From positions 26,191-90,190 of the IMG/VR virus record IMGVR_UViG_3300021387_000141: a stretch of DNA of 64,000 nucleotides; one strand, 5' to 3'. The notes beneath the pieces were generated by a model that saw only the letters and a program-made list of their open reading frames with translations, did no database searches and was not told the DNA's origin. Positions 13,323 through 61,000 of this stretch are shown piece by piece. Position numbers and translations under genes: made by a program. Origin of the DNA: a virus (taxonomy: Duplodnaviria; Caudoviricetes). Position 1 is the stretch's first letter. Every line of letters starts with the position of its first letter.

Positions 13323-13442
13323 ATGAAAAATTTTATAATTGATGCTATCATCGTGATGGCATTTTTATACTTTTTATTGTTGTGCTCCGGTTTATTGCCG
13401 GAGACTTTAAATTGGTTTAATTTAAACCCCAGCCTTTGGTAA
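13323..13442 (+). CDS. 39-aa hydrophobic peptide (not in ORF track)
   Basis: RBS AAAGGAG; MKNFIIDAIIVMAFLYFLLLCSGLLPETLNWFNLNPSLW*; bracketed by promoter and terminator. Confidence 0.7.
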   Translation: MKNFIIDAIIVMAFLYFLLLCSGLLPETLNWFNLNPSLW

Positions 13443-26142: not shown

Positions 26143-26439
26143 TTGCCCGGTTATTTTTACGATCCTGATTACGGAGCCCGTTTTATGGATCAGTTGGAAG
26201 AAGTGTATGATCACCACGGAAACTGTATTTTAACAGAATGCTGCGGCGTCTATTGGATGTGGGATCCGTATCATGAAAACTATATTTGTCCGAAGTGCGG
26301 AAGAACGGTGTCACGCAGCTCATTTTTGAAAAACTACGTTCCGGCATACGGCCCGGAATGTTTCAGCTGTCGGACCAACTTTCCGCAGTGTGTTATTTGT
26401 CATAAGAACCATCAGAAAGAGTTAGATGATAGGGAATAG
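26143..26439 (+). CDS. Cys-rich zinc-finger protein
   Basis: TECCG, CPKCG, CFSC, CVIC; RBS AGGAGG with TTG start. Confidence 0.7.
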   Translation: MPGYFYDPDYGARFMDQLEEVYDHHGNCILTECCGVYWMWDPYHENYICPKCGRTVSRSSFLKNYVPAYGPECFSCRTNFPQCVICHKNHQKELDDRE

Positions 26440-26525
26440 GTCATAGGGACTGGGGAATAGTTTTAATAAGATGACAGCGAAGCTGTCTTCCTATTTTTAA
26501 CTAGCCCCTAATCCCTAACCCCTAA
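26430..26525. repeat. Inverted heptamer-array element (STRR-like)
   Basis: TAGGGAA TAGGTCA TAGGGAC TGGGGAA ... GACAGC/GCTGTC hairpin ... TAGCCCC TAATCCC TAACCCC. Confidence 0.6.
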
Positions 26526-26532
26526 AAAGCTC

Positions 26533-26558
26533 TCGCGAAATTTACATCCCCTCTTATA
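26533..26558 (+). promoter_or_regulatory. Phage promoter motif copy 11 (RNAP operon)
   Basis: TCGCGAAATTTACATCCCCTCTTATA. Confidence 0.7.
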
Positions 26559-26640
26559 GAGAGAAGTAGATATTACATCGACTTTTCGGTTTTGTCTTAC
26601 AAGACTTTTTGAGACCATGAACACATGGCCTCTTCTTTTT

Positions 26641-26808
26641 TAAGAACAGCGTTTGTCCGCTTTCCACTTTTCAGCCCACTTCCAATGTTTGGCTTAATCG
26701 TGCTAACGACCTTTTTCATTTTTACTCCTTTCAAATAGATGAATCCTTCTAAATAATCAACATTTTCCGCTCCGGACGTAAGTGGAAGGCGGATGAGCGC
26801 TGTTCTTA
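26641..26808 (+). ncRNA. Structured leader or sRNA closed by a 29-bp helix
   Basis: 26641-26669 pairs with 26780-26808: 25 Watson-Crick plus 4 G-U pairs, no mismatch on the + strand. Confidence 0.6.
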
Positions 26809-26830
26809 TTTTTTAACAGGAGGAGCTATA

Positions 26831-27121
26831 ATGCTCGAACGAAAGTTTCAATCCAAAGTTATTTCTGAATTGAAAGAGCTCTTTCCCGGCTGCGTTATTT
26901 TAAAGAATGACGCGAACTATCTTCAGGGGATCCCTGATATTTTGATCCTCTATGAAGATCGCTGGGCTATGCTCGAAACAAAAAAATCTGCAAAAGAACA
27001 TAAACAACCTAATCAGGAATATTACGTCGACAAGCTGAATCGCATGTCCTTTTCAAAATTTATTTATCCGGAGAACAAGGAGGAAGTTTTTTATGAACTT
27101 CAACGTGCATTCAAATCTTGA
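26831..27121 (+). CDS. VRR-NUC family nuclease
   Basis: LERKFQSKVISEL, GIPDILIL, LETKK, NQEYYV. Confidence 0.85.
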   Translation: MLERKFQSKVISELKELFPGCVILKNDANYLQGIPDILILYEDRWAMLETKKSAKEHKQPNQEYYVDKLNRMSFSKFIYPENKEEVFYELQRAFKS

Positions 27122-27656
27122 AGGCCGCCATGCATTTTTAGGTGCGAGCAAATACCATTGGATCAACTATGACGAAAGCAAGATCGCTGAAGCATACCGA
27201 AATGACCTGGCAAAAGAACGCGGAACCATATTGCATGATTTTGCTTCCCAGTGTATTCGGCTGAACCAGCGTCTGCCGAAATCCTCGCAGACATTGAACA
27301 TGTTTGTGAATGACGCGATCGGCTATAAGATGCGTTCCGAACAGCCGCTATATTTCAGCGAGAACTGTTTCGGGACCGCGGATGCGATCTGTTTTCGGAA
27401 GAACCTGCTGCGCATCCATGACCTGAAGACCGGTTTCACACCGGCGCATATGGAGCAGCTCTATATTTACAATGCGCTATTTTGCCTTGAGTACCATTTC
27501 GATCCGCATGAGATCGAGACCGAACTTCGTATTTATCAGTCGAATGAGGTCTTATGTGAAGAACCGGATCCGGACAATATTTCTGAAATTATGGAAAAGA
27601 TCAAAGCTTTTGACAAAATTTTACGAGATATTCAGCTGAAGGAGAGTGAAGCCTGA
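27093..27656 (+). CDS. PD-(D/E)XK nuclease-like protein
   Basis: RGTILH, FGTADAI, IHDLKTG, QLYIY. Confidence 0.75.
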   Translation: MNFNVHSNLEGRHAFLGASKYHWINYDESKIAEAYRNDLAKERGTILHDFASQCIRLNQRLPKSSQTLNMFVNDAIGYKMRSEQPLYFSENCFGTADAICFRKNLLRIHDLKTGFTPAHMEQLYIYNALFCLEYHFDPHEIETELRIYQSNEVLCEEPDPDNISEIMEKIKAFDKILRDIQLKESEA

Positions 27657-27657
27657 T

Positions 27658-30465
27658 ATGAGCAATAGTACAGCAATTAATATTTTAATTACCATGGCTA
27701 AGAAAGCCAAAAACCCGACGGTCAAGGATATTTTGCTTAGCGCAGCGGACATGAGCGATTCCGATTTTATTATGCATTACGGAACAAAGCGTCACTCCGG
27801 ACGATATCCCTGGGGTTCAGGCGACAATCCATATCAGCATGAAATCGATTTTTTGAATCGTGTCCGCAAGATGCGGAACAAGGGATATTCCGAACTGACC
27901 ATTGCAAAGAAGTGCGGATATTCTACGACCAGCGAACTGCGTTCCGCAGTCCGTTCGGCCAATAATGACATTTCTCAATATCGTATCCAGTGGGCCAACC
28001 AGTTATTAAAAGATGGCTTGACCCAGACCGAAGCCGCCCGGCGCATGGATATTCCGGAATCGACATTTCGTTCGATCATGGACAAACAGCGACAGGCCCG
28101 CGCTAATAAAGCGCAGTCGACTGCTAATTTTCTGAAATCCGTTGTTGACGAACGCGGCCCGATCGATATTGGTGCCGAAGTCAACCGTGAATTGAATATT
28201 TCCAACGAGAAACTGACACAGGCAGTCGATATTTTAAAGAAGCAGGGTTATGAAGTCCGTGTCGGTTCCATGCCTCAGGTAACGAATGAGCATGGCCAGC
28301 GGACGACCCTTAAAATTTTATGTCCTCCCGGATCTCCGAAGAACCAGGCATATTTGTATGACGATATTTCTCCGTTATTTGACTATGCCAAAGAATATTC
28401 TTCTTCCGATGGAGGCAAAACTTTCGATAAATTCGAATATCCTGCATCCATGGACTCCAAAAGAATATTTGTCCGATATTTGGAAGACGGCGGTGCGGAC
28501 CGTGACGGATTAATTGAACTCCGCCGCGGTGTTGAGGATTTATCGCTCGGCGGTTCCCGATATTCTCAAGTCCGAATATTAGTGGACGGGAATAAATATA
28601 TGAAAGGAATGGCCGTATATTCCGACAATATTCCGGATGGCTACGATGTTATTTACAACAGCCGTAAGTCCAGGGAAAAGGGCGAAGACCCGTTTAAGGA
28701 TATTAAAAAAGATGACCCGACGAACCCCTTCGGTTCCTATATTTCACCAAGGGGTCAGAGCCATTATATTGACTCGAAGACCGGAGAACGAAAATTATCT
28801 CTGATCAATAAACGTGCCGACGAAGGCGACTGGAACGACTGGTCCAAGTCCCTGCCTTCCCAATTTTTGTCCAAGCAGAACAAGAAGCTGATCGAGAATC
28901 AGTTAAATTTGTCCATTGCTGACAAGATGGCCGAGTACGAGGATATTTGCAACCTGACCAACCCGACCGTAAAGCGCCGATTATTAGAGACCTTTGCTGA
29001 GGATTGTGACGCGACTTCCGTCCATCTGGACGCGGCTGCCCTTCCCAGACAGCGCTATCAGGTTATTATTCCGCTGCCCTCCCTAAAGAAGGATCAAATT
29101 TATGCTCCGAATTTTAAGGATGGCGAGAAAGTGGCTTTGGTCCGCTACCCTCATGGCGGGATTTTTGAGATCCCCGTCCTTACCGTAAATAACAAAAATC
29201 GGGAAGGGATTTCTATATTATCTAAAAATCCGACCGACGCCGTAGGCATCAATATTGAGGCCGCCAAACAGCTGTCCGGCGCGGACTTTGACGGTGACAC
29301 GGTCATGGTGATCCCGTTATCCTCTAAGGTGCAGGTCTCTCACAGACCATATTTGGACGCCCTGAAAGGCTTCGACCCTGAAGTCGAATATCCGAAACGT
29401 GAAGGCATGAAGCCCATGCAGCGTACGGATATTGAGATGGGCAAGATCACCAATCTTATTATGGACATGACTCTTGCAGGCGCCCCTGAAGACGAGGTTG
29501 CCCGTGCCGTCAAGCACTCCATGGTTGTTATTGACGCCAAGAAGCACGAGCTTGACTGGCAGCTCTCTGAAGAACAGAACAAGATCAAGGAGCTGAAGGA
29601 CAAGTATCAGGGCCACTATGATGAGAACGGCCGCTGGCGCCATGGTTCGGGTACCATCGTGACCCGTGCCAAGAGCCCGGAACGCGTCACCAAACGCCGT
29701 GGTGAGTTCGACATCGATCCCGAGACAGGCAAGAAGATCTGGAAGGAAGCCTTCGATGCTCACTACGAAGACGCAAAGGGCAAGCCCAAGACGCGTACTC
29801 AGGAAAGCTACCGAATGCTCGAGACCGATGACCCTTACAGTCTTGTCTCCGGCATGAACACGCAGACCGAACAGCTTTACGCCCGCTATGCGGCGCAGCT
29901 GAAAGCGCTGGCCAATCAGGCACGTAAAGAGTACAAGTACAACACGCCGAACCTGGAATACAGCCCTTCGGCTCACAAAGTGTACAAGAAGGAAGTCGAT
30001 TCCCTCACTGAAAAGCTGCGCCAAAGCCGCTTGAACGCTCCCCGTGAACGTGAAGCGCAGCGCCGCGCCAATGTGCAGCTGGAACGGCTTTTTAAAGAAA
30101 ATCCGGAACTCCGGGACGATAAAAAACAAAGAGGCAAATACGCTCAGCAATATTTGACCGCTGCCCGTGTGGCAGTAGGCGCTCAGCGCTATAAGATTGA
30201 GATCACGCCGGCCGAATGGACCGCGATCCAGGCCGGAGCAATATCTGACAGCCTGCTGAAGCAAATATTAGACGCAACGGACACCAATACGGTGCGCGAA
30301 TACGCGACTCCGCGCAATTCAGACACCATGTCCAATGCTAAAAAAGCCAGATTATTTTCTCTTCGTCGTTCCGGTTACAGTAATGCGGAGATCGCAGACG
30401 CGCTCAATGTGCCTGTCTCGACGATCCTTTATTACGTACGCCAGGAAAAAGAAGGCAAACTCTAG
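27658..30465 (+). CDS. Single-subunit double-psi-barrel (YonO-like) DNA-dependent RNA polymerase
   Basis: Catalytic GADFDGD; RYPHGG; MGKITN, HSMVVIDAKKH; three HTH-like segments. Confidence 0.85.
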   Translation: MSNSTAINILITMAKKAKNPTVKDILLSAADMSDSDFIMHYGTKRHSGRYPWGSGDNPYQHEIDFLNRVRKMRNKGYSELTIAKKCGYSTTSELRSAVRSANNDISQYRIQWANQLLKDGLTQTEAARRMDIPESTFRSIMDKQRQARANKAQSTANFLKSVVDERGPIDIGAEVNRELNISNEKLTQAVDILKKQGYEVRVGSMPQVTNEHGQRTTLKILCPPGSPKNQAYLYDDISPLFDYAKEYSSSDGGKTFDKFEYPASMDSKRIFVRYLEDGGADRDGLIELRRGVEDLSLGGSRYSQVRILVDGNKYMKGMAVYSDNIPDGYDVIYNSRKSREKGEDPFKDIKKDDPTNPFGSYISPRGQSHYIDSKTGERKLSLINKRADEGDWNDWSKSLPSQFLSKQNKKLIENQLNLSIADKMAEYEDICNLTNPTVKRRLLETFAEDCDATSVHLDAAALPRQRYQVIIPLPSLKKDQIYAPNFKDGEKVALVRYPHGGIFEIPVLTVNNKNREGISILSKNPTDAVGINIEAAKQLSGADFDGDTVMVIPLSSKVQVSHRPYLDALKGFDPEVEYPKREGMKPMQRTDIEMGKITNLIMDMTLAGAPEDEVARAVKHSMVVIDAKKHELDWQLSEEQNKIKELKDKYQGHYDENGRWRHGSGTIVTRAKSPERVTKRRGEFDIDPETGKKIWKEAFDAHYEDAKGKPKTRTQESYRMLETDDPYSLVSGMNTQTEQLYARYAAQLKALANQARKEYKYNTPNLEYSPSAHKVYKKEVDSLTEKLRQSRLNAPREREAQRRANVQLERLFKENPELRDDKKQRGKYAQQYLTAARVAVGAQRYKIEITPAEWTAIQAGAISDSLLKQILDATDTNTVREYATPRNSDTMSNAKKARLFSLRRSGYSNAEIADALNVPVSTILYYVRQEKEGKL

Positions 30466-30479
30466 AAAGGAGCTCAATC

Positions 30480-30797
30480 ATGGAGAAAGATCAGACCTGT
30501 TACCTGACAACGTTCGACAATCCGTTCAATCCTGACACACAGTTCGATCTATGGTTGGACTTCGACATCGATCACGGCTATTACAGCTGCGCTTACCTGG
30601 ATCGGATCGCCAAGATCAGTCCCGCAATGAGCGAGATCGAGAAGGAACTGGAGATTGAACGCGCGATTGACGAGATCATCAAATATGACTTCCGAAATAT
30701 ATACACAAAAATATACGTAAAAAAACAAAATGACACCCCCGTTGTTGATGACGACGAGGATTTTGACAAATTAATTGACCGCAGCCATTACGCATAA
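30480..30797 (+). CDS. Acidic protein downstream of RNAP
   Basis: RBS GAAAGGAG; YLTTFDNPFNP..QFDLW. Confidence 0.8.
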   Translation: MEKDQTCYLTTFDNPFNPDTQFDLWLDFDIDHGYYSCAYLDRIAKISPAMSEIEKELEIERAIDEIIKYDFRNIYTKIYVKKQNDTPVVDDDEDFDKLIDRSHYA

Positions 30798-30799
30798 AA

Positions 30800-30880
30800 T
30801 AGACACACCCCGGGGGGATAGGCGAAAATCCCACCCCCTCCCCCAATCGCGGGGGTCTCCAAAAATTCTCCGGGGGAGTT
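30800..30880. other. G/C-run cluster, putative cos/packaging site
   Basis: CCCCGGGGGG, CCCCCTCCCCC, CGCGGGGG, CTCCGGGGG in the gap upstream of small terminase and HNH. Confidence 0.45.
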
Positions 30881-31161
30881 TTTTAGGACGCGTTTTATAT
30901 TTTAGCGTGGTGTTAATAACTTTAGTAAAAAATTTATATTTGTAATAGCCCTTTGAAGAGTGATTCAAAGGGCTTTGTTTAATGAAAGAAAAGACAAATG
31001 GATATTTTAGAAGGATTTAGAAAGTACTTTCAGGGGCTCAAGGTTTCCATTTGTTTCCTTTCGTTCCTAACATTATTCGTCTTATGATATGTGCTTGGTT
31101 TTTTCGTTGCTTTGAGCCTCTGAAAGTACTTTCTAACAAAGGAAAAGAATGAGGTAAGCGT

Positions 31162-31506
31162 ATGAGAAAGAAAGAGAAAGACCTTGAAACTCCGGTAAAG
31201 CGAAAACAAAGGCCGGGAATGTCGGTCGAAGCTCGTGAAAATCAGCTCATTTCGCTTGCCGTTGATCTTGCTGAAAAACAATTATTGGAAGGAACAGCTT
31301 CGTCACAAGTAATTACACATTATTTGAAGCTTGGTTCTACAAAAGAACGATTAGAAAAAGAAATTTTAAAACAACAAAAAGAATTAATTGAAGCGAAGAC
31401 TGAAGCTTTGCATTCATCGAAACGAATAGAAGAATTATATTCAAACGCATTGAATGCTATGCGGAATTATCGCGGTGACATTAATTCTGATGAAGATGAA
31501 GACTAA
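31162..31506 (+). CDS. Probable terminase small subunit
   Basis: First gene of the packaging module, helical; positional call. Confidence 0.5.
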   Translation: MRKKEKDLETPVKRKQRPGMSVEARENQLISLAVDLAEKQLLEGTASSQVITHYLKLGSTKERLEKEILKQQKELIEAKTEALHSSKRIEELYSNALNAMRNYRGDINSDEDED

Positions 31507-31929
31507 ATGGATACTCTGCGAACATATACAGAATTAATAAAACGTTCAACTTTTATGGATCGTTTTAATTATCTAAAACTGGATGGAAAAATCGGTGAAG
31601 ATACTTTTGGATTCGATCGATATTTGAATCAAATATTATATCGTTCTCCAGAATGGCGAAAAGTTCGGGACATTGTAATTGTCAGAGATAATGGAAATGA
31701 TTTAGGATTGGAAGGTTTTCAGATCGGTAAAAAGAATCTGATTGTCCATCATATGAATCCGATCACGTATCATGATATTGTCCAAAAGAATGATGAGATC
31801 ATGAACCCTGAATTTTTAATATGTGTATCCCGACTGACGCATCAAGCGATCCATTATGGTAATTTGGATCTTTTGCCAAAAGAACCAATAGAAAGATCAT
31901 TGAATGATACCTGCCCCTGGCGGCATTAA
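31507..31929 (+). CDS. HNH endonuclease (packaging-associated)
   Basis: RDNGNDLG, IVHHMNP, THQAIH. Confidence 0.85.
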   Translation: MDTLRTYTELIKRSTFMDRFNYLKLDGKIGEDTFGFDRYLNQILYRSPEWRKVRDIVIVRDNGNDLGLEGFQIGKKNLIVHHMNPITYHDIVQKNDEIMNPEFLICVSRLTHQAIHYGNLDLLPKEPIERSLNDTCPWRH

Positions 31930-46007: not shown

Positions 46008-49000
46008 ATGTCAGAACTTCTTGATGAACGTGTAGTAGAGATGCGTTTTGATAATGCTGATTTTGAGCAGAATGTGAATCAGAGTATCAAAACCATTAAT
46101 AAATTAAAAGATTCTCTGGATTTTGATAATGCCGGAGAAAGTTTTGAAAATATTTCAGCTGCAGCAGCGAAATGTGATATGAAACCGCTGGAAGATTCGA
46201 TCGAATCGATTTCAGTGAAATTTAATATGCTGGAACTCGTTGCTGCGAACGTGCTGAGTAATATTGTCAATAAAGTAGCGGATGCTGCTGTAAATATGAC
46301 AAAGTCATTAACTATTGATCAGGTAACCGCGGGCTGGTCCAAATATGAACAGAAGACGCAATCGGTTCAGACAATTATGGCTGCTACCGGAGAGTCCATT
46401 GACGTGGTTAACAACAAATTGGAAAAACTGATCTGGTTTGCGGATGAAACTTCTTATGATTTTGTCGATATGGTGAACAATATCGGTAAGTTCACTTCCG
46501 CAGGAGTTGATCTGGACACTGCTGTAAATTCAATGATGGGTATTTCCAACTGGGCCGCCATATCCGGTGCAGGTATTCAACAGGCCAGCCGGGCGATGTA
46601 TAACCTTTCTCAGGCAATCGGTATGGGATATGTTGGTATTCAGGACTGGAAATCGATTGAACTTGCCAATATGGCGACTATTGAATTTAAAGAAACAGTA
46701 CTTGAGACTGCCCTGGCTTTTGGAACTTTAAAACAGGAAGCTGATGGAACGATCAAAACTCTGGATGGAAAAGATATCGTTACCGCTGAAACAATGCGTA
46801 ATTCTTTAAAAAAGCAATGGTTTACCAGTGATGTATTAAATGCCGCTTTGGATCAGTATTCTGAATTTGCTAATGAGGTTTATGCATATCAAAATGATTT
46901 TGAGAAAAAGCATGGATACGCTATCACAGTGAATAACGCCATGCGGTTGATGGAAAAAGATGGTTATGTTATGGATTCGCTCGGCGCTAAAGCTTTTGCT
47001 AAAGCTCAGGAGGCGGTCACATTAACACAAGCTGTTAATGCTACAGCAGACGCAGTGTCTTCCGGATGGATGCGTACTTTTGAAACTATATTTGGCAATT
47101 ACGAAAAAGCGAAAAAGTTATGGACGAATCTTGCAAATGATATGTGGGATATCTTTGCCTGGCCCGGTGAAACTCGTAATAATACGCTGTATTCCGTAAT
47201 GGAATCAAATTATCAGAAAATGCTGGATGAGATGCCGGATGGAAGTGACTTTAACGAACGTTTGCAGGTAAAAATCACAGAAATTGCTCGTTCTAACGGT
47301 AAGACCGAAAAAGAAATTAAAGAACTTTGGCGGAATTTTGATTCTGTTGAAGAACTGCTTACCAGAGGGGATCTCAGTGATTTTTCTTTGGATCAGGCTT
47401 TCAGTGAGTTATTGGAAGAATATCACCGGGAAGGAGATCTTGCCGGAAAACTTTCAGCTGATCTAAAAAGTGGTGATAAATCGTTAAAGTCTATTATTAC
47501 TGCTTTGGCTTATGGCTATGGCCCATATAGTAAAGATGCTGAAAAAGCCAGAAAAGAAATTGAAAAAATCGGGTTGGATTATGACTGGGCCATGGAGATG
47601 GCTAATGCAGTATTGAATGGAGCCCAGATTGATTGGAATGCAATAACCAAAGATCTGGTAACCGAACTGGATTCACAAAAAAGTATATGCGATGAATTCG
47701 TTGCATATTTGAGTGAAAGTTTATCCTGGGGATATGATGGATTTTTTGGAAGGATCAAAGAACTTGGCGGCCGGGATAAATTAATGGGCGCTCTTGATAA
47801 TATCCTCAAAACATTTAAAAATATATATCGTTTGGTATTGACGACAAGCAATGCAATTTCTGAAAAATTTGGCGGAAATTCATTAATATTGAGTATATTG
47901 GATGGCTTTAATAAATTAACCGGTGTTTTTGCAATTACCGATGAAAAATTTGAAGCTATGGAACAAAGTATTAACGATTTCTTTTTTAATGGCGGATTTG
48001 AGACAAAACTTGTTGAATTTGTTGAAAAATTAGGTAAAGTAAAGAAATCGATTGTTGATTTTTTTCTTGGAAAAGAAACTTTATATAAAGGCAATTATTA
48101 TGACAAAACGCTGCAGCGTACCGTGAGTATTTATGAACGGGAAGGCGGTCTGTTTCAAAAAATTTATAATTTATATCAAACTTATATCGGTCGTTTACCG
48201 GAAAATGTTCGGGATAGTATTGAAAAAATCAGAACATCGATCAGCGGATTTTTGGGGGATGTTCCGAAAAAGTTTGAAGAATTAAAAACAAAAATCACTG
48301 AAATATGGACAAAAGTTTTTGGAGAAGAAACCGGAATCGGAACATATTTCAATCCTATTACAAAAAAGATTGGCACTTACACAAAACGCGCTGGCGGACT
48401 GATCGATGAATTTAAGCAAAAGATATTGTCTTTTGGTAATGGCGCTGTTGGAAAAGCAATTGAATGGCTTGCAGCCGGATTAAAGAAAATCGGTGACCTA
48501 TTATTCGGATATAAAAAAGATGGTGAAGATGTTCAGGGAATCATTACCATTATTTATGATAAAATGGCTGCCTTTTGGCAGATGCTGAAAGATATTGGGA
48601 AGGCAGTTGAAGATATTTTTGAAAGATTCAAATCCTGGTTGGGATTAGATTTTGAAAAAGTAGGTAACAGCAGCTTTTTTGATATTCTTTTAGGCAAAAA
48701 AGTTTATAAAACAAATGTGTATGATGAAAAACTTCAGCGTACAGTAAGTGTTTATGAACGAACCGGTGGCATTTTAGGTAAAGTAAAAGAAGCTTATTCA
48801 TCATTCGAAAAAGAAATTTTAAAGATCGCCGAATCTGCGGCATTTATTGCGATCAAGAATTTTATATTTGGTGATGAAGAATCAAAAATTCCAAATATCT
48901 TTGGCCGAATAAAAGAACCGTTACAAGATATCACTGAATTCTTTATTGGAAAGAAAATTCATAAAGGAACTACCTGGTCGGACGAATTAAACAGCTATAT

Positions 49001-52000
49001 TCCACTTTATGAACGCCAGGGTGGTTTAATCAATAAGTTAAAAGAAACAATACAAGATGTAACAGATTCAAATGCATTTAAAGCAATACGTAATTTTATA
49101 TTTGGCGATGAAGAATCAAAAACTCCGAATATCTTTGGTCGAATTCAATCTGTTATAGATTCTATTGCGAAATCAACAGCATTTATTGCAATCAAGAATT
49201 TTATATTTGGCGATGAAAAAGCTAATATTCCGAATATCTTTGGTCGAATTCAATCAGTTATAGATTCTATTGCGAAATCAACAGCATTTATTGCGATCAA
49301 GAATTTTATATTTGGTGATGAAGAATCAAAAACCCCGAATATCTTTGGTCGAATTCAATCTGTTATAGATTCTATTGCGAAATCAACAGCATTTATTGCG
49401 ATCAAGAATTTTATATTTGGCGATGAAAAAGCTAATATTCCGAATATTTTTGGCCGAATTCAATCTGTTATAGATTCTATTGCGAAATCAACAGCATTTA
49501 TTGCAATCAAGAATTTTATATTTGGCAATGAAAAAGCTAATATTCCGAATATTTTTGGTCGGATAAAAGAAACAATACAGAGTATAACCGATTCGACTGC
49601 ATTTAAAGCAGTTCGTAATTTTATATTTGGTGATGAAGAATCTAAAACCCCGAACATTTTTGGTCGGATAAAAGAAATAATACAAAGTATAACCGATTCA
49701 ACCGCATTTAAAACAGTTCGTAATTTTATATTTGGCGATAATGAGGGAAATACTAACGGATCCATTGGCATTTTAGAAAGAATCCAAAATTTTCTTCAAT
49801 CTATTTACGAATCCACACCTTTTAAAGCAATTTGGAGATTCTTTTTTGGTGATGAAGAATTAAATGATGGACTGAAAGAAGGTACTGAGACTTTAGATAA
49901 GACTGCTTCAAAAAGTAAAAGTACACTTCATGAAGCTTCACTTGGCGAAAAACGGGATCTATATCAAATCAAAGATGACAGCGGAAGAATGATACCATTT
50001 GAAGAAATTTCTTCTTCGAATAGTAAGTTAACCGGCTTTCAAAAATTATTATTGGGTATTAAAGAAAAATTCGAAGCTATTACTTCATCAAAAGCATATA
50101 ACGATATCAAAGAATTTTTCTTTGGATCAAAAAGAGCTGTCTATAATGAGAAATTCGAAATTGTTGGTTATGTACAGGATGCTCCGAATATCATTCAAAG
50201 AATAACGGGAGCTATTGAAAAATTACCGGAATCTATTCGGACGGCTAAAGATGCAATTTTAAATTTCTTTCTCGGTCCCGTAAATGAAGAAGGAAAACGA
50301 ACAGAAAACATTTTCAAACGGCTTCCGACTTATATTTCAGCAGCAAAAGATAATATCGCTGATTTTTTCATCGGAAAGAAAATTCATAAAGGAACTACAT
50401 GGTCAGATGAATTAAACAGCTATATTCCGCTTTATGAACGTGAAGGCGGTTTGATCAATAAGTTAAAAGAAACTTTTGAAAAGTTAAAATCAGAGCATCC
50501 CTGGTTTGCCTCATTTTGTTCATTCATTGAAACCCAGATACAAAATATCCGAAAGATATTCTCTGAAGCCGGCGGAGATATTTCATTGGCTTTTGAAAAT
50601 CTGAATACTTATTTAAATGGTGGGCATTTCAAACACAAAAATGAACTGGGGGAGATCGAAACAGATCTTGAAGAAACTGATGGTGTAATCACGAATATAC
50701 GTAAAAATATCGAAAAATTATTTAATGGCGGAAAAGAAAAATCAGAAAAATCGGTTTTGGAAAGAATACTTGAATATCTGGGAATTGGCAGAAATCGAGG
50801 ATTTTTAACACAATTACGAGATTTTATTGCTACTTTAACAGGTATGAATATCTTTATGATGACCGCCAATTTAAAATTTGGTGATTTTTTAGGTATACAA
50901 GTTCAAACTGGCTTAGAAGCATTTATTGATAGTTTAAAGGCATTAGCTATCTCTGTAGCTATAATTGCCGCGACGCTTGCAGGCATGACCATTTTTATAA
51001 ACTATTTGCAGACAAAAGGTTATGCCACTTTAGCTGCTGCTTTTGGGGTTATTACATTAATATTCGCACTGTTAGTTGGTGTATCATATTTTATGCAGAA
51101 AAAGCAAGCGGAATTAAATGCAAAAACAGCAGTTGTTCTATTGGTAGCATCAGGAATGATTTCTGTAATAAGTGGACTGCTGATAATATTAACCGGACTG
51201 TTTTTCGGTATTGTAGCGATACTTGCAAAATTTAATTTAATTGAAAATCATAAAAAAGAATTACTTGTTGCTGGCGGAGTACTCGCCGGTTTATTGACTT
51301 TTATTACATTAATAACTGCTTTCAGTGTAAAAGTCGCTAAAAAAGATGAAAAAATAAAATCTTCATCCGGCGTTTGGTTTGGTCTTGCAGCTGTGTTATT
51401 TGGACTTAGCCATTTTATAACAACGATCGCTATTTTATTAGGCGCTTTTTATTTATTCCCTAAAAATATGGATAAATTAAAAGAAGCCGGAAAAATTCTT
51501 GGAGGCTTAATCGGGCTGGCAGTAGCTATGGTAGCTGCAACTGCGATTTTAGCCAGAATTGCTACCGGAGGAAGAGGAACTGATAAAACGACTTTTGCAA
51601 TTATCGTAGCTTTGTTGGTTTCATTAAATAGTTTTCTTATTTCAGTTTCTGCTATAGTTGCCGGAATTTATTTCTTTATGAAAGACAAAACATTGTCTGA
51701 TTTAAAAACTCCGGCATTAGTGCTTGGCGGTATTATATTATCGGTGGCTGCATTAATTGGCTTGGTGCTTTTAGCTGTTAATAAATTCAGCAAAATAAAG
51801 TTACAGGAAAGTGATGATAAAAAAGTCGCAACGATCGACAAATCAGTATTTGGTTTATTGATTGGTATAGTTATTCTTGTCGAAAGAATAAAAACTCTTG
51901 TTGCTTTGATAGCTGGTATTGGTGCAGTTACTGGTTGGGAAAATATAGCAGTTGCTTTTGGCGGTATATCAATTCTTTTATTAGCTATTGCTGGAACAGC

Positions 52001-55000
52001 GGCAATATTAGGTTCAATAAAAAAAGTTGATGGCTCTGTTATAAAAAATCTGGCATTAGTTTCGTCATTAATTATTTCAATCGGTGTAATGGTATCCGCG
52101 ATTGTTTCATTAGTTGACGCCAATCCTGAAGTATCAAACATACATACATATGTATTACCTATTGTTTTAGCAATAGGAGAAATACTTTTATTAATAACTG
52201 CTGTATCAGGGATGCTTCAGTTTATAAAAAATGCTAAATTAAGTGAAATTAATAATGCAGATACCGTCTTTTTGATGATTTTGGGAACGTTAACGGTCTT
52301 GACTATTTTGATCGGGGCTATTTATGGCATTGCAAAATCCAGAAATTTAAGTGATTTGCATACAACGATTTTTCCAATCGTTGCTGCTATAGCAGCAATG
52401 GAAGTATTGGTCGCCGGTATTGTATTGCTTTTAAAATTTATTGCTAATAATAAAATTGATCCAAACCATGTTGGCACATTAGACCTGGCAGCAATAAGTA
52501 TTGTTTTAATTTTGGGTTTATTAGTTGCATTAGCAGCCGGAGTTTCAGCGTTTTTAGATCAGGCAAAGGCAAATAAAAAAGATTTTAATGGAAAATGGAA
52601 AGAACTGCTTCCATTATTTGAAGTAGTGGGCGAACTGATTATTCTAATGATTCCGTTATCCATGATGCTTTCTTCGTTAGGAAAAGCTAAAGTAAATGCA
52701 GAAACGATTGTCGCTTTTATGGCGATGACTGTTGTTATAGGAGCATTAATAATAGGTGCTAAAGAACTGATAAATTATGCAGACGGGTATGGTGATATAA
52801 AAACCGCCTGGAAGACTTTAGTTCCAATGCTTGAAGTTATCAGTGAAATCATAGCCATTACGTCATTGCTTGTAGTTCCTTTGGCCTTAATAAAGCATTT
52901 TGAGATTGACATAGCCGCTATAGGAAAATTTATATCAATGGCGGTGATTGTCGGCATTTTAGGTGCGGCTGCAGTGTTGCTTATTCAAAATATTGAAAAG
53001 TTCGATGTCGGTGATATGGAAACAGCATGGAAAACGCTGCTTCCTTTAATTGAAGTGATTAGTGAACTAATTGCTGTTGCAACTTTATTATTAGTTCCAT
53101 TGGGATTATTAAAACTTATAAAAATCGATTGGAAAACAGTATTTCAATTAGGGGCATTAATTCTATATTTATATGCATTAGTTGGTGCAGTAGCTATTTT
53201 GTCCACTATAGCAGTTGAGCATCCAAATATTGATAAATGGGATTCATTACTTCCATTATTAACTGGTATATTAGGAATGGTTATAGCTATTGGTGCTATG
53301 GTAGCTGTACTTATGGCTATGAATGCTGCGATTCAGCATTGGGGCGATAAAGTTGACTTTATAAAAAATTTTGGAAAAACATTCTTAACATTTCTCGGGG
53401 CGCTAGGCTCATTAATGGTACTTGTTATAGCCATGACAGCTCTCGGTGCTGTACTATATGCAGTTCAAAAAGGACTTTCTGATGCATTAGGAAATGGCTG
53501 GATGCTTGAAAGTATTAAGTTATTGAGTGATATGCTTCGTTCAATGCTTGATATTTTTGTGACACTCGGACTTGTATTATTGGGTATAGGTTTAATATAT
53601 AAGGTTGCGCCCGACTTAAAAAAGAAAGATTTTGGTTTTAAATCAGTTGCGAAAAATATTGCTGTAGCAATGGTCGCTATACTTGAAATAATAGCGGGAA
53701 TGGTGCTTTTAGGCGCTTTATTACGTTTGGCTCAAAAAGGACTTTCTGATGCATTAGGTGCTAGCGACGATTGGATGTTTGATTCAATTGATTTTATTGT
53801 AGAAATAATGGATCGTTTTTCAGGAGCATTGATCAAATTTTCAATTGCAATAGCGTTGATTCAGATTGTATTTGGCTTTTTGGATGGGATCATGGGAAAA
53901 TTAAAGGTGACTAAAACGCCATCCAAAGGTCTTAATATGGCAAGCATAATAGGCGGCATTCTTAAAGCTGTCGCAATAATAGGAGTGATTATTGCTGCTG
54001 CAGTAACATTGGGCGCCGCTTTCATGGGCGTTCAATGGTTAGGCAAAAAGCTTTTTAAAAACGCCGACGATAATTGGCTGTTTGATGCAATTGACCTGAT
54101 AGGTAATTTAATTGGGGCTATTCTTGGAAAATTGGTAGATGGCATTAAAAATCTGGTTACAAAATTCAAAGGAAATGAATCCGAGCAGTCGGTAAGTATC
54201 GGCGAAAAATTAAGCGGTTTTATGAAAGCCCTTGGTCCATTCCTGGAACAGATTCGCAGCCTTTCTTTATCTGATATCAATCAGGTTGCTATTCTTGGCA
54301 TGATTATGGCTGGGCTGTTTGCAACGGAATTATTCCAGTCCGCTGCATTATGGGCTGCTTCATTGCAACCGGACGGTGATATTGCTACCTTAGTTAATGG
54401 CTTATCGGATTTGTTTGGAGAAGATGGAGCAATTACCGGTTTTCTTACTGCGATCCAAACAATCAGTTGGCATGATGTTGACCAGGTAAATCTTTTAGCC
54501 GATATCATGAAAGCGTTGTTTGTCAGTGAATTATTCTCGTCAGCAGCTGCTTGGGCACAATCACTTCAGACTGGCGGTGATATTTCAGAAGTTGCAAAAG
54601 GTCTTTCAAGTCTTCTTGGTGAAAATGGATCGCTTACCGGATTTTTAAATGCTGTAAAAGATATTACATTAGGGCAGGTTGCCGGTGCACAAGCCTTAGC
54701 CGCAGTGATGGGCGGTATATTTACAGCAACATTGTTGGAAAAAGGTGCGGAATGGGCCAGCACAATTAAAACTGGTGGAAATATTGATACGGTTGTTAAA
54801 GGCCTCAGCGGTTTACTTGGCGAAAAAGGTTCATTGACCGGATATATTAATGCTGTTTCTAATTTGGATGGAAATTCGGTAAAAGGTGCAACTTATTTAT
54901 CATTAATCATGGGTGCTGTTTTTACAGCAACATTATTAAAAGGTGTAACCGAATGGGCCAGTACGATTAAAACAGGCGGCGACTTCAATACCGTTGTCAA

Positions 55001-58000
55001 TGGTTTGAGCGGGTTGCTTGGTGAAGGCGGTACTTTGACTGCATTTTTAGAAGCAGTTAAAAATATTGGTGAAACCGAAGTCAAAGGTGCTGGTAATTTG
55101 TCATTAGTTATCGGTTCAATTATGGCCGACGAATTAATGTCTAAAATAGCAGAATATTTTAGTACTTTTAATACAGGCGGTAATTTTGAAACCGTTGTTG
55201 CTGGTTTATCAAATCTTTTAGGAACTAACGGTACATTAACTCAATTTTTAAATAATGTCTCCGCAATTGGCGATGATAAAGTAAAAGGCGCTGAAAACCT
55301 TGCATCCGTAATGAATGCGATTATGCTTGCTGAATTTTTACAGCAAATGGCTACTTATGCGTCAACATTTAATACCGGCGGAAGTTTTGATCAGGTAGCG
55401 ACCGGTTTATCCAGCTTATTAGGTGAAAATGGGAAATTGACGGCTTTTCTCGATGCTGTTAAAGACCTGGATGAAAATGATGCCACAAGGGCTGGATATT
55501 TAACGGATATCATGGCCGCGATTTTTGTATCCGAAGTATTTGATACTTTAATCGGTTTTGCTTCTCAATTTAGCAGTGATGGCGGTCAGTTAGCTACAAT
55601 TGCAACTGGTCTTGGACAAATGGTTGCTGATTTGCAGCCATTTTTGACTGCAGTACAGGATCTTGAAAAAGATGATGTTACACGTGCTGGATATTTGCCT
55701 CAAATTTTAGGTGCGGTTGTTAATACTCAGTTGCTTACTGCTGCTGAAAAAATAACATCTTTTATATCCGGATCTAATGATACCAATTATGTTGAAATGT
55801 TTGGAAAGCTTACAAAAGAAAACGGCTTGGTTGATGGCGTTATAATGCTGGCTAATGATCTTCGTGAAAAGAAAGCAAATCTTTCCGGTGTTTCTGAAGC
55901 GGCAGATGCGATCGGATCCGTTTTTGAACTTCTTCATATTTTAAGTGATATGGCAGAAGTGAAAGACAGCACAACATTAATTGACCGATTAAAGTTTTGG
56001 AAAGATACTGTTGCATTGGACGATGCCGCAACGGCTATTCAAAAAATAGATGAAAAAATCGTAACGGAAATAGTTAAATTCCAGACAGATCTGCAGACAT
56101 CCGGTATTGATGCAGAATATATAAAGAATACTGTAGGTTTATATTTAGACATAATCAATACAGTCATGAATTTGGCTAATGCCAGCGAATCTGATATAGA
56201 TTTTATCAATTTTGAACAACTCGGTAAAAACATTATTGACGGATTGATATTATCGTTCAGTAATATGGATGACCGAAACCGTGTATATGAATCTGCATTG
56301 AAACTGGGTCAATACATTGCCGAGGGTCTGATCACTGGCGTGAATGGCAGTACTGACGCATTGGATACTGCCGGTACGGATATGGCGGATACAGTTACTG
56401 AAGCAACAGCTGATGAATTGGAAGTTGCATCTCCTTCCCGAGTGATGTATGAAATTGGTCAGTTTGTAGTTCAGGGTTTGATCAATGGTATTCACGCCGG
56501 ATCTTACGAAGCCAAAAAAGAAGCAGAACGTCTCAGTGCGGTTATTGAAGATGGTGTTTCCAAGCATGATATTAACATGGCCGGTGTCAATATCGAAATG
56601 GATTGGGAACTGGCTTATGGTAATCTGGATAATTTAAAAGACAGTGTTGGTAATATTGATTTTGAAAAGATTCGTGAATTTTTGCATGGGCAATATGATG
56701 AACTTCTCGGTACGGAATACATAGATGCTTTTATTAATTCGTGGGCGGGAAAGTGGAAACAAATTCCGCAGATTCTGGATGAAACTCAGTCGAAAATTGT
56801 TAAAGGCATTGCCAATAATGAATATGGTTATACTCAGGAAGAAATCCTGACAAATCTTGAAAAAGAACTGGGTTCGGCAGAAGATGCTCAGAAAGCATGG
56901 CAGAATTATAACGATGTTCTTGCAGATAATATTAAGCTTAATCAGGAAAATGCTAAAGAACAGGTCGCCAGTGCTCAGATGACCAAAGAGGAATACGCTG
57001 AGATCGAGCGTCTGTTTAACGAAGCACATTCCGGAAAGTACGATGCTCAAAATGGTGATACCCGGGTTGACCGTCTGGTCAAAGAAGCCGGCGCCACTAG
57101 AGAACAGGCTGAACTTGTTCAGCGTATGCTGAATGATCAATATGAATACGGCCTTAGTCCATCTTATGTCAGAGCCGAAAAGCAATTGAAGGAACTGCGT
57201 GAAGAGGAAGAAGCTCGGAGAAAAACTGCTGCAGAAACAAGTAAAGCCGCTGAAACTACTGCAGAAAGCATGACTGATGCTACTGACGGAATTGATGCTG
57301 CAACAGAAAGTCTTGATAATTTGAAAACAACAGAAGAAGCTGTTGCAGAAGCTGCAGACGATGCTTCTAAAAGTATAGTCAAGATCAAAGATTCCGCAAA
57401 AGAAGTTCTTAAAAATGTAGATAAAAAGACTTTGCAGGAAGGCTATGCTGCCTGGAAGGCCGGCAGGGATATGACTGCTGAGCAGGCCGAACAATTTAAT
57501 TATATTCGGAAACAAAATAGATTACAAAATCTTGGTTCCCGTGGGCAAAGAGATGCTTTTTATAAAGAACTCGGGTTCGATCCTAAAGACGCAAATGATT
57601 TCTTTAATAATGCAGATCCGTATCAGAATGCCCGCAGACGCATGGAAGGCAATGCTGAGTCCTATTCTCGTGTTGTAGAAAAAGAAACGGAAGCTGCAAA
57701 AAAAGCTGCCGAAGCTAAAGGCTCGATTAAAGACACACTGGATTATATTGAAGAAAATGAAAGCTCTGATCTGGAAAAGAATAAGAAAATGTATCAGGAA
57801 GCTTTCAAAGATACAGATGATTTATTGAATGCTGCTTTTGATCGGATGCGTAAGGGAGAAAAATTGACTGAAGATCAGGTAGATTTTCTCTATGAATTCC
57901 AGAAAGCAATTGGTACAGACATTTTTGGATCAGGTAAAGATCGGCGAAAAGAATTCAAATCACTTGGTATTTCAGAAGAAAATCTGGATATGGCCATGCG

Positions 58001-61000
58001 TATTTATGGCTGGAATCTTGAAAAATATAATCAGACCGCCAAAGAAGCATCTAACTCTACAACAGATCTGACAAAGAAGATCACTCAAAATGGTACCGAA
58101 GCGGAAATGATGTCCATGGTCTATGAAGCTCTTCCGGAAGAAATAAAGGGATATGCTGATGGTTTCAGTGACATATTTACGGCTGCTTTTGATGAAAAGA
58201 CCGGAAATATCAAAATTACCGATGATATTTATAAAAAGGTGTTCAAGGTCAATGATGTTAATAAATTGACCGGCATTGGTAAAACTGTTTATGACACGAT
58301 CGGCACCGGTTTTGAGATGGGCAAGGGCACGCTTGAAAATCTGCTGAAAGAAAATGGCCTGGAATTAAACGGTAAAAGTGTCAGTTCTTTCTTCTCAAAG
58401 GAAACTTTTGCAAAAATGTTCCAGTCTGATAGTGGGATTTTTGATCTTGCCGGTACCATAAAAGAAAACATTGATCCTTTGCAAATGTTCGGCGATTTTA
58501 TTGGCGGTTTGTTTAGCGGAAAAGGTGTAAAAGGCTCCGCATCTGCTGCGCTGGTAAATGGTTTGTCAAGCGCGTTTAAGTTAAGCCAGAATGTTGTTGA
58601 AAATGTTGAGGAAATTTCTAACACAGTACTTGATCCGGAAGCTGATCTCACAGATTTAGACTATTTTAATGCTTATCTTGAAAAGATCAAAGAAAATTAT
58701 GCATTGATAACCGATTCCGAAGGAAAAGCATTTATCGCTATAAAAGGTTATCAGAATTTAATTGAAGGTAAAGATCTTACAACATCTCAGGCTCAGGAAT
58801 TGACCAAATTATATGATGCCGTTGTTCAGGGCTTTTACGGTAAAGACCATGATGAAATTCAGCAGAATCTTATGGAGATGTTTAATATTGACTGGGATGT
58901 TCTCCGTGGAAATGGCCGTAATTTTGAACAGTACGCAAACCAATATCTGGAATATGCAGATAAAGTGACTGCTAAACGCGATGCCGGTGAAAAATATACG
59001 GCCGAAGATTTTGTACGTGATGTAAACGCCGGCAAATTCGGTCTGGATGCAGAAACCCGGAAAAAGGTGTTTGAAGCTGCAGATATCGATGTCCAACGGG
59101 GTGAAGAACTTTATCAGAATTGGCTGAAAGATGGTAATAAAGCGCTTGAACAGATCGGTGACGATCATATATTTCTTACGAAACAAGAAAAAGAAGCTGC
59201 TGAAACAGTAAAACAAACCAATGAAATTCTTGCTTCAACTCCGGAAGGCGCTTTCCAGGCAGTGGCTAATTTCCTGGATGGTGTTGAGAAAGCTATTACC
59301 AATAAGAATGCCGCGAAAGATTTTCGTACTTTTATGGACGATATCAAAGATATCTTCAGTAAAGATAATATGAAAATCGAGGGCGCTTCCGATTTCGGTC
59401 AGATCGCTGACTTTATCAAAATGGTTGATACCACTTCAAATAATTCAAACGGTTTGAAAGACAGCTTTTCAACTTTAATGAACGGGATCAGCCAAACGAT
59501 CAACGGCTTATCTATTGATGAAACAAAACTCGATCCTATTACGAATTTCCTGGATAAACTGGATGCTTCTTCTGAAGTATTTACGAATGGTGACAGCAGT
59601 GGTATTCAGAAATTTGTGGATAATTTATATTCTGCAATGGAAAACAGTGGAGGAGATGCCTCAGCTGCCGCGAATACGATTGCCGAAGTGATCAACGTCA
59701 CGTTGCTGGAAAAGCAGGATAAATTTGTTGAAATTGGTCAATTCATTGTTATTTGGATTGCTGCAGGGATGATCGCCTATCAAAATGTCGTCCGTGAAGC
59801 TGCAAACCAGACGGCGACAACGCTGACTACAGCATTTAATCAGCAGGCGGTTGACAAAGCGCCGCAGTCCGGTAAAGATTTTATTACTGAGTTCACAAAA
59901 GGAATTGTTTCTGAAGAATCGGTTTCCGCATTGGATACTGCTTTAAATACTTTATTCAGCAGTTTAAATGAAGCAACAGCTGCTGCCGGTGAAACAACAG
60001 AAGAATCTTCTGCACTTGGCGGTGGATCGGCAGGTACTCGCTTCGGTCAGCAATTCGTTCATGACATGGCTCAGAGCATTACGGAAGGCTCCATTACTGC
60101 CTTCACCGGGCTGACTCAATCGATCGCCAATCTTCCACAGTCGATCAGCGAAGCTTTGGATGAAGATAAGCAGAAAGAACTGACAGCTGCCGTAGATGGC
60201 ATCAGCAGCATGCTGAGCGGCATCGTTCCGGATGGTTCCTCCATGGCAATGAATATGATTGAAGGGATCATCAGCACTTTAACGGCTAATGGTCCGCTGA
60301 TCGCTGACCTGATGGCCTGGATCGCAGCCGGTGCTCAGGGTGAATTTAATCGTGAAAATGAGTCTCATTCTCCTTCCCGGAAATATAAGAAGTTCGCTGG
60401 TTATATCACCGACGGTATTGTGATTGGACTTCAAAATGGTAGTCGGGATGTCAATAAGGCTTCTGCGGATGTCGCATTAGGCGCTTTGAATACTGCGAAA
60501 GACGTTTTAGGCATTCATTCTCCTGGTAAAGAACCTGAAGAGCAAATCGGTATACCATATGATCAAGGTGTTGCAAAAGGCATTGAAAACGGAGAACCCG
60601 CTGTTCAGGCAGCTGTAACAGATATGGCCGAAAATGCAGTTGAAACTGGTAATTCAGTTATTAGTAAAAACCTTGGTAAATCCATTGATACTGGCCTATT
60701 CAGAAATAATTTAATGAATAATTTAAATAATCTTTCGCCATATCCTGCTGGTACTAATAAGTATCTTCAGGATGTACAAAACGATATCAAAAATATCATG
60801 GGCGAGATTATTACTACAGAAGAAAATGGTTTAACCGTAGGTCAAACTTTAACTGAACGAGCAATTGAGCATTTCATGTCTGCCACAAGCGGTATAAAAA
60901 CAATGACCGAAGAAGAAGCCGCTGTAATTCAAGGCTTTTGGAGTCAAATTTTAAATGGCGATTTCGGTGTATTGGAAGGTGCGAATTCAGCAACCGGCCG

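Follow-up and report, generated by a model that had tools for sequence, protein, structure and literature searches.

A covarying long-helix RNA with an anti-ribosome-binding-site loop in the leader of a phage RNA polymerase operon, a candidate paired-termini antisense element

Why should the leader of a phage RNA polymerase operon contain a 29-bp helix whose loop carries the complement of a ribosome-binding site (RBS)? The locus belongs to a phage from ruminant gut samples, represented by a complete record of 90,190 bp with terminal repeats; the stretch analysed here, referred to as the window, is the final 64 kb of this record. The interval 26558-26830 makes up the entire leader of an operon for an endonuclease, a Cas4-like exonuclease and a single-chain RNA polymerase, and the helix, designated E1, lies inside it (Table 1). 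The gene order of this operon is kept in about 150 loci, and relatives of its polymerase were identified in the Faecalibacterium phage FP_oengus and in Arthrobacter, Gordonia and Streptomyces phages. Judging from the sequence of the locus and of its relatives, E1 is most likely a domain of structured RNA within the + strand leader of this operon. A description of the element, or of the promoters of this phage group, was not found in the literature.

Table 1. Position and basis of the features of the leader, the operon behind it and the sister element (window coordinates)
Feature	Coordinates	Strand	Basis	Remarks
Promoter-like motif TCGCR-N7-CA-N4-CT-N4-T	26533..26557	+	fixed-spacing exact match	phage-specific
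5' stem-loop (hairpin 1)	26561..26587	+	MFE fold; kept in relatives directly 3' of the promoter motif	followed by a short U run
Terminator-like hairpin 2	26611..26640	+	terminator scan and fold	UUCUUUUUU tail; abuts the helix on its 5' side
E1 left arm	26641..26669	+	repeat search, fold, covariation	29-bp helix
E1 loop	26670..26779	+	repeat search, fold	110 nt
Anti-RBS/anti-start core of the E1 loop	26711..26735	+	sequence and fold	CUUUUUCAU-UUUUA-CUCCUUUC-AAA
40-codon ORF	26719-26597	-	reading frame	strong RBS; basic hydrophilic peptide; probably not a conserved gene
E1 right arm	26780..26808	+	repeat search, fold, covariation	29-bp helix
Operon behind the leader	26831..30465	+	Pfam, PHROGs, tblastn	endonuclease, Cas4-like exonuclease, RNA polymerase
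Endonuclease nuc96	26831-27121	+		96 aa; phrog_93
Cas4-like exonuclease	27093-27656	+		phrog_3953
YonO/RdRP-like single-chain RNA polymerase	27646-30465	+		939 aa; HTH domains at both ends; phrog_4291
Sister element E2	31017..31136	+	repeat/fold, covariance model	27-28-bp helix; 64-nt loop with anti-RBS/anti-start tract; before the packaging operon

The promoter-like motif at the head of the leader occurs in 11 exact copies in the window, all of them on the + strand (0.23 expected), and in none on the minus strand. It is found 5' of the nuc96 gene in nearly all of the approximately 150 related loci, which were drawn from collections of viral and metagenome sequences, and the leader transcript presumably starts near 26560-26565. 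A purine-rich stem equivalent to hairpin 1, followed by CUCUCUUUU, is also present in nearly all relatives, and homologues of hairpin 2 were identified in L001, the closest complete relative, and in two more lineages, L085 and L088. A strain SNP (26629 C>T) converts an A-C mismatch in the stem of hairpin 2 to A-U. Two terminator-like hairpins are thus located between the promoter motif and the E1 helix, and may limit the amount of transcript that reaches the helix. The initial annotation had placed the helix in the leader of the RNA polymerase operon, which is borne out by the + strand promoter-like motif upstream of it, and had pointed to a terminator-like hairpin at 26611-26640, which is recovered by both the terminator scan and the fold. 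A sigma-70 promoter within the E1 loop (26730-26757) was considered as well and set aside, being conserved in neither L085 nor L088 and incompatible with the RNA helix.

In most relatives the leader is short, the RBS following within 45-100 nt, and the slot holds additional cargo where the leader is longer. Several lineages have a + strand tRNA gene there (tRNA-Met in L116 and L123, tRNA-Leu in L129), and therefore the slot is a transcribed region of the + strand able to host stable RNAs.

The two arms of E1, 29 nt each, pair without bulges and are 86% Watson-Crick (25 Watson-Crick and four G-U pairs on the + strand), and the right arm ends 22 nt before the ATG of the endonuclease gene. Repeat search confirmed the original description of the helix, including the point that all four non-Watson-Crick positions are G-U on the + strand and would be A-C on the minus strand. 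The + strand of 26540-26850 has a predicted folding energy of -96.0 kcal/mol (z = -6.9), which none of 100 shuffled sequences matched, and its MFE structure contains the full 29-bp helix; the minus strand of the same interval folds at -88.7 kcal/mol (z = -4.3). The helix is long enough for an RNase III site, which takes some 20 bp or more of almost unbroken duplex RNA, and in relatives it measures 26-40 bp. Its transcription on the + strand is probable, given its place downstream of the promoter-like motif and the + strand tRNA genes in the same slot of other relatives; assembled contigs of one RNA run cover only 26923-27120, a part of nuc96.

A homologous helix is located at the same place in L085 and L088, whose endonucleases are 81% and 73% identical to that of this phage, and the parts of the leader are arranged there in the same order: promoter motif, 5' stem-loop, terminator-like hairpin, long helix and RBS. 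In the three-way alignment of the window with L085 and L088, 94% of the cells are paired and 10 of the 29 pairs have changed on both sides; when, as a control, the 3' partner was slid by 1-3 columns, only 40-52% were paired and at most two pairs were double-changed. Transition mismatches over the three copies are G-U on the + strand in 11 cases and A-C in three. Strain variants from other samples (the identical L169 and L170, L172, L288-L290 and one contig of run X5) have no SNP at any of the 58 positions of the arms and carry five SNPs within the E1 loop. By this comparative evidence, E1 is a + strand helix of 29 bp at the level of RNA, kept by compensatory evolution. The initial annotation had named the absence of conserved pairing in relatives as the observation that would speak against it, and the pairing is in fact kept through double changes. 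Its preference for a + strand RNA gains further from the ratios of G-U to A-C, 11:3 for E1 and 83:20 for the element family described below.

The E1 type is known from three lineages only. No further copy was found in the 90-kb genome, a degenerate 21-nt arm pattern had no match in 2.9 million viral contigs, and blastn of E1 against GenBank phages gave no match. A shorter pattern of 14 nt of the arm had at least 115 matches, which were judged to be due to chance; among the loci returned, none had the partner arm.

The window contains a sister element, E2, in front of the packaging operon, with two G-U pairs in its helix and a loop that opens with the complement of an RBS and ATG. Its family was gathered from viral contigs by taking the sequence that precedes the next gene (phrog_4259) and comprises 47 distinct sequences, each of which forms at least 22 pairs (about 56 at most) around a loop of 44-123 nt. 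The arms diverge widely in sequence, and RNAalifold predicts 28 consensus pairs, all 28 of them with compensatory changes. The + strand folds more stably than the minus strand in 43 of the 47 sequences. Among 26 cluster representatives, in which the repeats were detected in a strand-symmetric way, mismatches are G-U on the + strand in 83 cases vs 20 A-C (p = 3e-10); as the skew of T over A at third codon positions of the + strand (0.35 vs 0.25) could inflate the G-U counts, the excess was also set against a null of 0.6 that allows for this skew, giving p = 1e-5. CUCCUUUC is present in 22 of the 26 loops and in none of the 26 on the reverse strand (shuffled mean 0.1), and a start-codon complement at RBS spacing is present in 13 of the 26 vs 2.6 in shuffled loops.

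A covariance model (R1), built from 22 E2 representatives of alignment A2, recovered E2 in 38 further loci that had been fetched independently via the exonuclease gene. The + strand always scored better, and the matches lie 3.7-4.0 kb downstream of the start of the exonuclease gene wherever the position of that gene is known. True members score 50-93 bits and E2 of the window 60 bits. The score of E1 is 18.6 bits (E = 0.05, + strand), the best match outside the family in 135 kb. The design common to E2 elements was defined as a helix of at least 23 bp with G-U pairs on the + strand, a loop of 44-110 nt containing CUCCUUUC, a terminator-like hairpin on the 5' side and a position 25-87 nt before the first start codon of an operon. 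E1 agrees with this design: four of its 29 pairs are G-U, the loop of 110 nt contains ACUCCUUUC, hairpin 2 adjoins the helix on the 5' side, and the ATG of the operon lies 22 nt beyond its end, suggesting that it may be regarded as a second element of the E2 design, the kinship being one of design rather than proven homology. Rfam gave no match at the gathering score for the whole window, and for 26400-31300 with E up to 1 only sub-threshold chance matches were returned, such as a plant miRNA precursor (31 bits, cut-off 71).

As far as can be judged from the alignment, the conserved part of the E1 loop is the anti-RBS motif. The complement of an RBS that had been noticed in the loop is indeed there, and CAU-U5-(A/U)CUCC is common to the loops of the window, L085 and L088. 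The 25-nt core is predicted to form a small hairpin with CUCCUUUC exposed in its apical loop, and a small hairpin exposing the CUCC tract in this manner is predicted in L088 too. CUCCUUUC is identical to the anti-Shine-Dalgarno core of Firmicute 16S rRNA, and therefore any RBS can pair with the loop. The complementarity of the loops to some start regions, however, exceeds this pairing of CUCCUUUC with an RBS.

Over 56 nt, the reverse-complemented E1 loop matches at 75% (E = 8e-4) the leader and start region of a 121-aa gene (G000:12681), and 17 nt of it are identical to the start region of a small cassette at G000:13985, consisting of a promoter, an RBS, 11 codons and a terminator; it also resembles further leaders and start regions of early genes. 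Sixteen nt of the E2 loop in this phage are an exact complement of the region where the gene at window position 16594 starts. In other genomes the complementarity of the E2 loop lies elsewhere: in G001, 21 nt are complementary to the start region of a different gene (164 aa), which has no orthologue in this genome, so the identity of the E2 target is not conserved. In G002, the loop is perfectly complementary over 26 nt to the place where a 155-aa gene starts (E = 1e-8) and matches a second leader over 46 nt at 85%. The matches of the G004 loop are of 14-25 nt only, and for the G003 loop no extended match was found. Exact runs were counted from 16 nt upwards, since shuffled loops reach 10-15 nt through A/T runs. 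A genome scan of whole loops with RNAduplex proved too noisy, as long interior loops were allowed, and was replaced by BLAST, exact-run counts and duplexes of core segments.

By the last of these measures, the strongest predicted partners of the E1 core are small genes of the early region: G000:12681, with a duplex of -28.6 kcal/mol at its start region, and the genes at window positions 13323, 15626, 15981, 14320 and 17676. Genes of the early region have significantly better duplex energies than structural genes do (p = 0.002). With the RBS of its own operon the E1 core reaches -10.7 kcal/mol, rank 88 of 119, which argues against a simple sequestration of this RBS and for an action on other mRNAs. 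A search of PHROGs with the candidate target genes gave nothing beyond "unknown".

Start regions in this genome share sequence modules, 26 of the 119 having at least 12 nt in common with another one. The loops could thus be inverted copies of such modules with no targeting involved. This explanation does not account for the retention of the copies, in one orientation, inside a covarying helix.

Taken together, the preferred reading is that E1 is a + strand antisense RNA of the "paired-termini" type, located in an operon leader and likely to be a substrate of RNase III; we give it a probability of about 0.5. Both E1 and E2 have the sequence arrangement of such an RNA, terminal inverted repeats enclosing the complement of an RBS and start codon. 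Transcription would start at the promoter-like motif and read through the 5' stem-loop and the terminator-like hairpin, the latter being leaky. The 29-bp helix, with both arms in one RNA, would then form and present the 110-nt loop, whose functional core would be the pyrimidine tract CAU-U5-A-CUCCUUUC, the complement of a standard phage RBS and start codon. The long perfect helix would stabilise the RNA, and the host RNase III would probably cut within it and free a stable hairpin RNA. The loop would pair in trans with the starts of other phage genes, mainly the small ones of the early region, and possibly with host mRNAs, and by blocking ribosome binding it would silence the translation of these targets. 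Among the three alternatives offered by the initial annotation, a trans-acting antisense RNA appears to fit best, given the 16-26 nt perfect complements of other genes' starts in the loops.

It is also possible, although we hold it to be rather unlikely, that E1 is a purely cis-acting leader element, either a site of RNase III processing or mRNA stability or a put-like signal for processive antitermination. The role of the loop would in this case be the binding of a protein or the polymerase by CUCCUUUC, or a transient sequestration of the operon's own RBS. The position of the elements suits this explanation well: E1, E2 and all members of the E2 family have a terminator-like hairpin immediately on their 5' side and precede the opening gene of an operon by 25-87 nt. 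A near-perfect helix of 23-47 bp is an obvious RNase III substrate, and a long late operon would benefit from antitermination. For E2, the start region of its own operon ranks 15 of 119. The poor rank of E1 with its own RBS speaks against the cis-acting element, however, as does the mismatch between the loop motif and the own Shine-Dalgarno sequence (GAGGU) in the E2 group of the window, L298 and L299. Half of the representative loops have, moreover, a correctly spaced start-codon complement, and a signal for protein binding or antitermination would not need the long complements of other genes' starts. As for the attenuator of RNA polymerase expression that had been proposed earlier, it finds no support in that same rank of the own RBS or in the sequence behind the helix: UUAUUUUUU follows the right arm in this phage only, the U run being absent from L085 and L088, E2 members continue with A-rich sequence, and the loop measures 110 nt, where an intrinsic terminator would have a compact G+C-rich hairpin with a U tract right behind it.

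A further reading, which we consider doubtful, would make the hairpins natural mimics of the 3' end of 16S rRNA that are released from operon leaders, accumulate owing to the stability lent by their paired termini and soak up the Shine-Dalgarno sequences of early phage mRNAs and host mRNAs. If this were true, a family of gut and rumen phages would reprogramme translation globally by means of RNA and not protein, and the nucleotides flanking the invariant CUCCUUUC would tune the range of targets.

Read on the minus strand, the core of the E1 loop is an RBS followed by ATG (26719-26717), and a real gene for a 40-aa basic peptide might lie there, the inverted repeat being incidental or acting on an antisense transcript. 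The RBS is strong and correctly spaced, the 40-codon frame is intact in all close strains and was called by gene callers in at least six contigs, and each of the three strain SNPs that fall within codons 1-16 affects a synonymous third position (p ~0.04). The three SNPs in the C-terminal part, on the other hand, are all non-synonymous, and a search of 5.8 billion proteins gave no homologue of the peptide beyond its own 90% cluster, nor was a paralogue found in the genome. The equivalent frame collapses to MKK-stop in L088 and to M-stop, with a 6-aa frame besides, in L085, while the RBS-ATG complement stays; L001 has an unrelated frame of 21 aa at another position. Most loops of the E2 family are without a start codon after the minus-strand RBS, neither a phage promoter motif on the minus strand nor a minus-strand terminator after the ORF was found, and the G-U pattern disfavours a helix on this strand. 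The conserved frame, homologues and hydrophobic peptide by which a minus-strand small gene or a type I toxin would be recognised were not seen. We therefore regard such a gene as very unlikely: the frame and the well-spaced RBS reported in the initial annotation are present, but the frame is not conserved, and the suggestion of a cis antisense pair is not supported.

L001 lacks the 168-bp element at the exact site, which has a T run on either side and looks like an empty site, and in many related contigs the sequence breaks off no more than about 350 nt before the gene behind E2, so a DNA-level feature might be considered as well (inverted repeats of a mobile element, an invertible switch, a protein-binding palindrome or a + ssDNA hairpin, and for E2 a palindrome within a packaging site); gene conversion between inverted repeats would mimic covariation too. 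The orientation of E1 is identical in every contig seen, with no inversion or skipping joints in the assembled contigs of four sequencing runs, and one contig from another study spans 26630-26974 with the orientation unchanged. A DNA-level feature is the least probable of the explanations, since E1 has none of the several copies, both orientations and adjacent recombinase of a mobile element or invertible switch (no recombinase gene was found among the neighbouring genes scanned, nor a second copy in the genome, the viral contigs or GenBank phages), and since neither the strand-specific bias of G-T over A-C (83:20), which is not expected of a duplex protein site, nor the conservation of the loop motif in a single orientation agrees with it.

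E1 and E2 most likely represent a type of phage RNA that was previously uncurated, to go by the comparisons above, and the E2 family is widespread in the phage group, being conserved in dozens of uncultivated gut and rumen phages with a YonO-like single-chain RNA polymerase. To our knowledge, regulatory RNAs of phages are known from a handful of model phages. Should the antisense reading be true, the elements would form a structurally distinct class, in which a long paired-termini helix holds out an invariant anti-Shine-Dalgarno loop, and would be the natural counterpart of a synthetic antisense design that was invented independently. The reading also offers a concrete hypothesis of how such phages might time or shut off the translation of many small early genes. 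The covarying alignment A2 and the model R1 can be used to seed an RNA family.

Several known systems share some of these properties. RNase III sites of the T7 type are, like E1, long intercistronic helices in phage mRNA just upstream of the RBS of a gene; they consist of about 2 x 10 bp, interrupted by an internal loop and closed by a small apical one, and have no conserved anti-RBS loop. The C-rich or UCCC-loop sRNAs of Firmicutes, such as RNAIII and the Rsa RNAs of Staphylococcus aureus and RoxS/RsaE, use pyrimidine-rich apical loops to pair with Shine-Dalgarno sequences, and the resulting duplexes are RNase III substrates. In contrast to E1, which has no Rfam match, they are encoded by the host, have short stems and different motifs and are represented in Rfam. 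The c4 RNA of phages P1 and P7 is a 77-nt antisense RNA that is processed by RNase P and acts within its own transcript in immunity. E1, as proposed here, would resemble c4 in being a phage regulatory RNA from an operon leader, on the same strand as its targets, that is processed out and blocks an RBS with its loops. It differs in its 29-bp helix and 110-nt loop, has no similarity to c4 in sequence or structure, and its best predicted targets are located elsewhere in the genome. DicF of the Qin prophage and OOP of phage lambda are antisense RNAs whose action on mRNAs or their start regions involves RNase III (PMC12197685). They are short RNAs of enterobacterial phages with no homology to E1, and OOP is encoded in cis on the opposite strand.

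The closest likeness in form is found in the synthetic paired-termini antisense RNAs (PTasRNA; Nakashima, Tamura and Good 2006), in which inverted repeats of 21-38 nt flank an insert directed against the RBS and start codon and pair into a long stem at the ends, by which the antisense RNA is stabilised (PMC3694883). In geometry, E1 and E2 are exactly of this kind. These constructs are engineered and have a promoter of their own, whereas E1 and E2 are natural, lie within operon leaders and are candidate silencers.

The leader slot between the promoter-like motif or 5' stem-loop and the RBS of the endonuclease gene, which is occupied in this phage by E1 (the 29-bp helix with a 110-nt anti-RBS loop), contains a plus-strand tRNA gene in other relatives (Table). 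In the endonuclease gene leader of one related locus (L007:3570-3740), a 14-bp helix encloses a 32-nt loop that holds the complement of GGAGGG-N8-ATG; this hairpin is the same idea as E1, reduced in size. Complements of an RBS and ATG are also found in the endonuclease leaders of L094, L095, L110 and L001.

On the 5' side of E1, the terminator-like hairpin 2 (26611-26640) carries an A-C mismatch that becomes an A-U pair in strain L172 by a C>T change at window position 26629. This change suggests that hairpin 2 is likewise maintained as a structure of the plus-strand RNA. Further upstream, TAGGG-like and CCCTAA-like units form an imperfect inverted repeat (26422-26525) around a bidirectional terminator hairpin (26473-26487), and strains L288-L290 have a 7-nt insertion at 26504.

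The promoter-like motif TCGCR-N7-CA-N4-CT-N4-T occurs in 11 exact copies in the window, all 11 on the plus strand, against 0.23 expected. The -10-like portion of many copies reads TnTAAT, and the upstream portion does not fit the sigma-A -35 box. The motif may be a promoter for the phage's own HTH-bearing polymerase, or for a phage factor.

The E1 loop finds its best exact complements in the start regions of two plus-strand "empty" cassettes located upstream of the window (L166:1218-1492, equivalent to G000:13826-14100 of the whole phage genome). Each is composed of a promoter motif, a leader, a strong RBS, ATG-AAA-TAA or an 11-codon frame, and a terminator; they could be small RNAs or leftovers of cargo genes. 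A third promoter copy is followed by a tRNA-like stretch, in which ARAGORN called no tRNA.

A second long hairpin, E2, lies upstream of the packaging operon. It is the founding member of a family in related phages that comprises at least 47 distinct, covarying sequences and has CUCCUUUC as its invariant loop motif; there was no match in Rfam. Within the structural region, a single uninterrupted open frame of 5224 codons extends over 46008-61682 on the plus strand.

Of 80 related contigs (loci L298-L374), more than 40 break off upstream of the gene at 31162, no farther from it than about 350 nt. The contig of a related phage, G001, begins at the position corresponding to window ~30856, within a tract of G runs and C runs. 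The region looks like the physical end of the genome, of the cos type, and an HNH endonuclease gene (31507-31929) adjoins it. In that case, E2 would be the leftmost element of the genome.

Table. Coordinates of features in the window and in related loci
Feature	Location	Strand	Remark
tRNA gene, Met	L116:1342-1416	+	leader slot
tRNA gene, Met	L123:1426-1502	+	leader slot
tRNA gene, Leu	L129:2383-2457	+	leader slot
tRNA gene, odd anticodon loop	L137:2385-2457	+	leader slot
E2, second long hairpin	window 31017-31136	+	27-28 bp, 64-nt loop with anti-RBS/anti-start tract
Promoter-like motif copies	window 13283, 13466, 13702, 14251, 14554, 15393, 15556, 15913, 18875, 19413, 26533	+	exact match
Candidate genome-end region	window 30800-30890		contig ends of related loci
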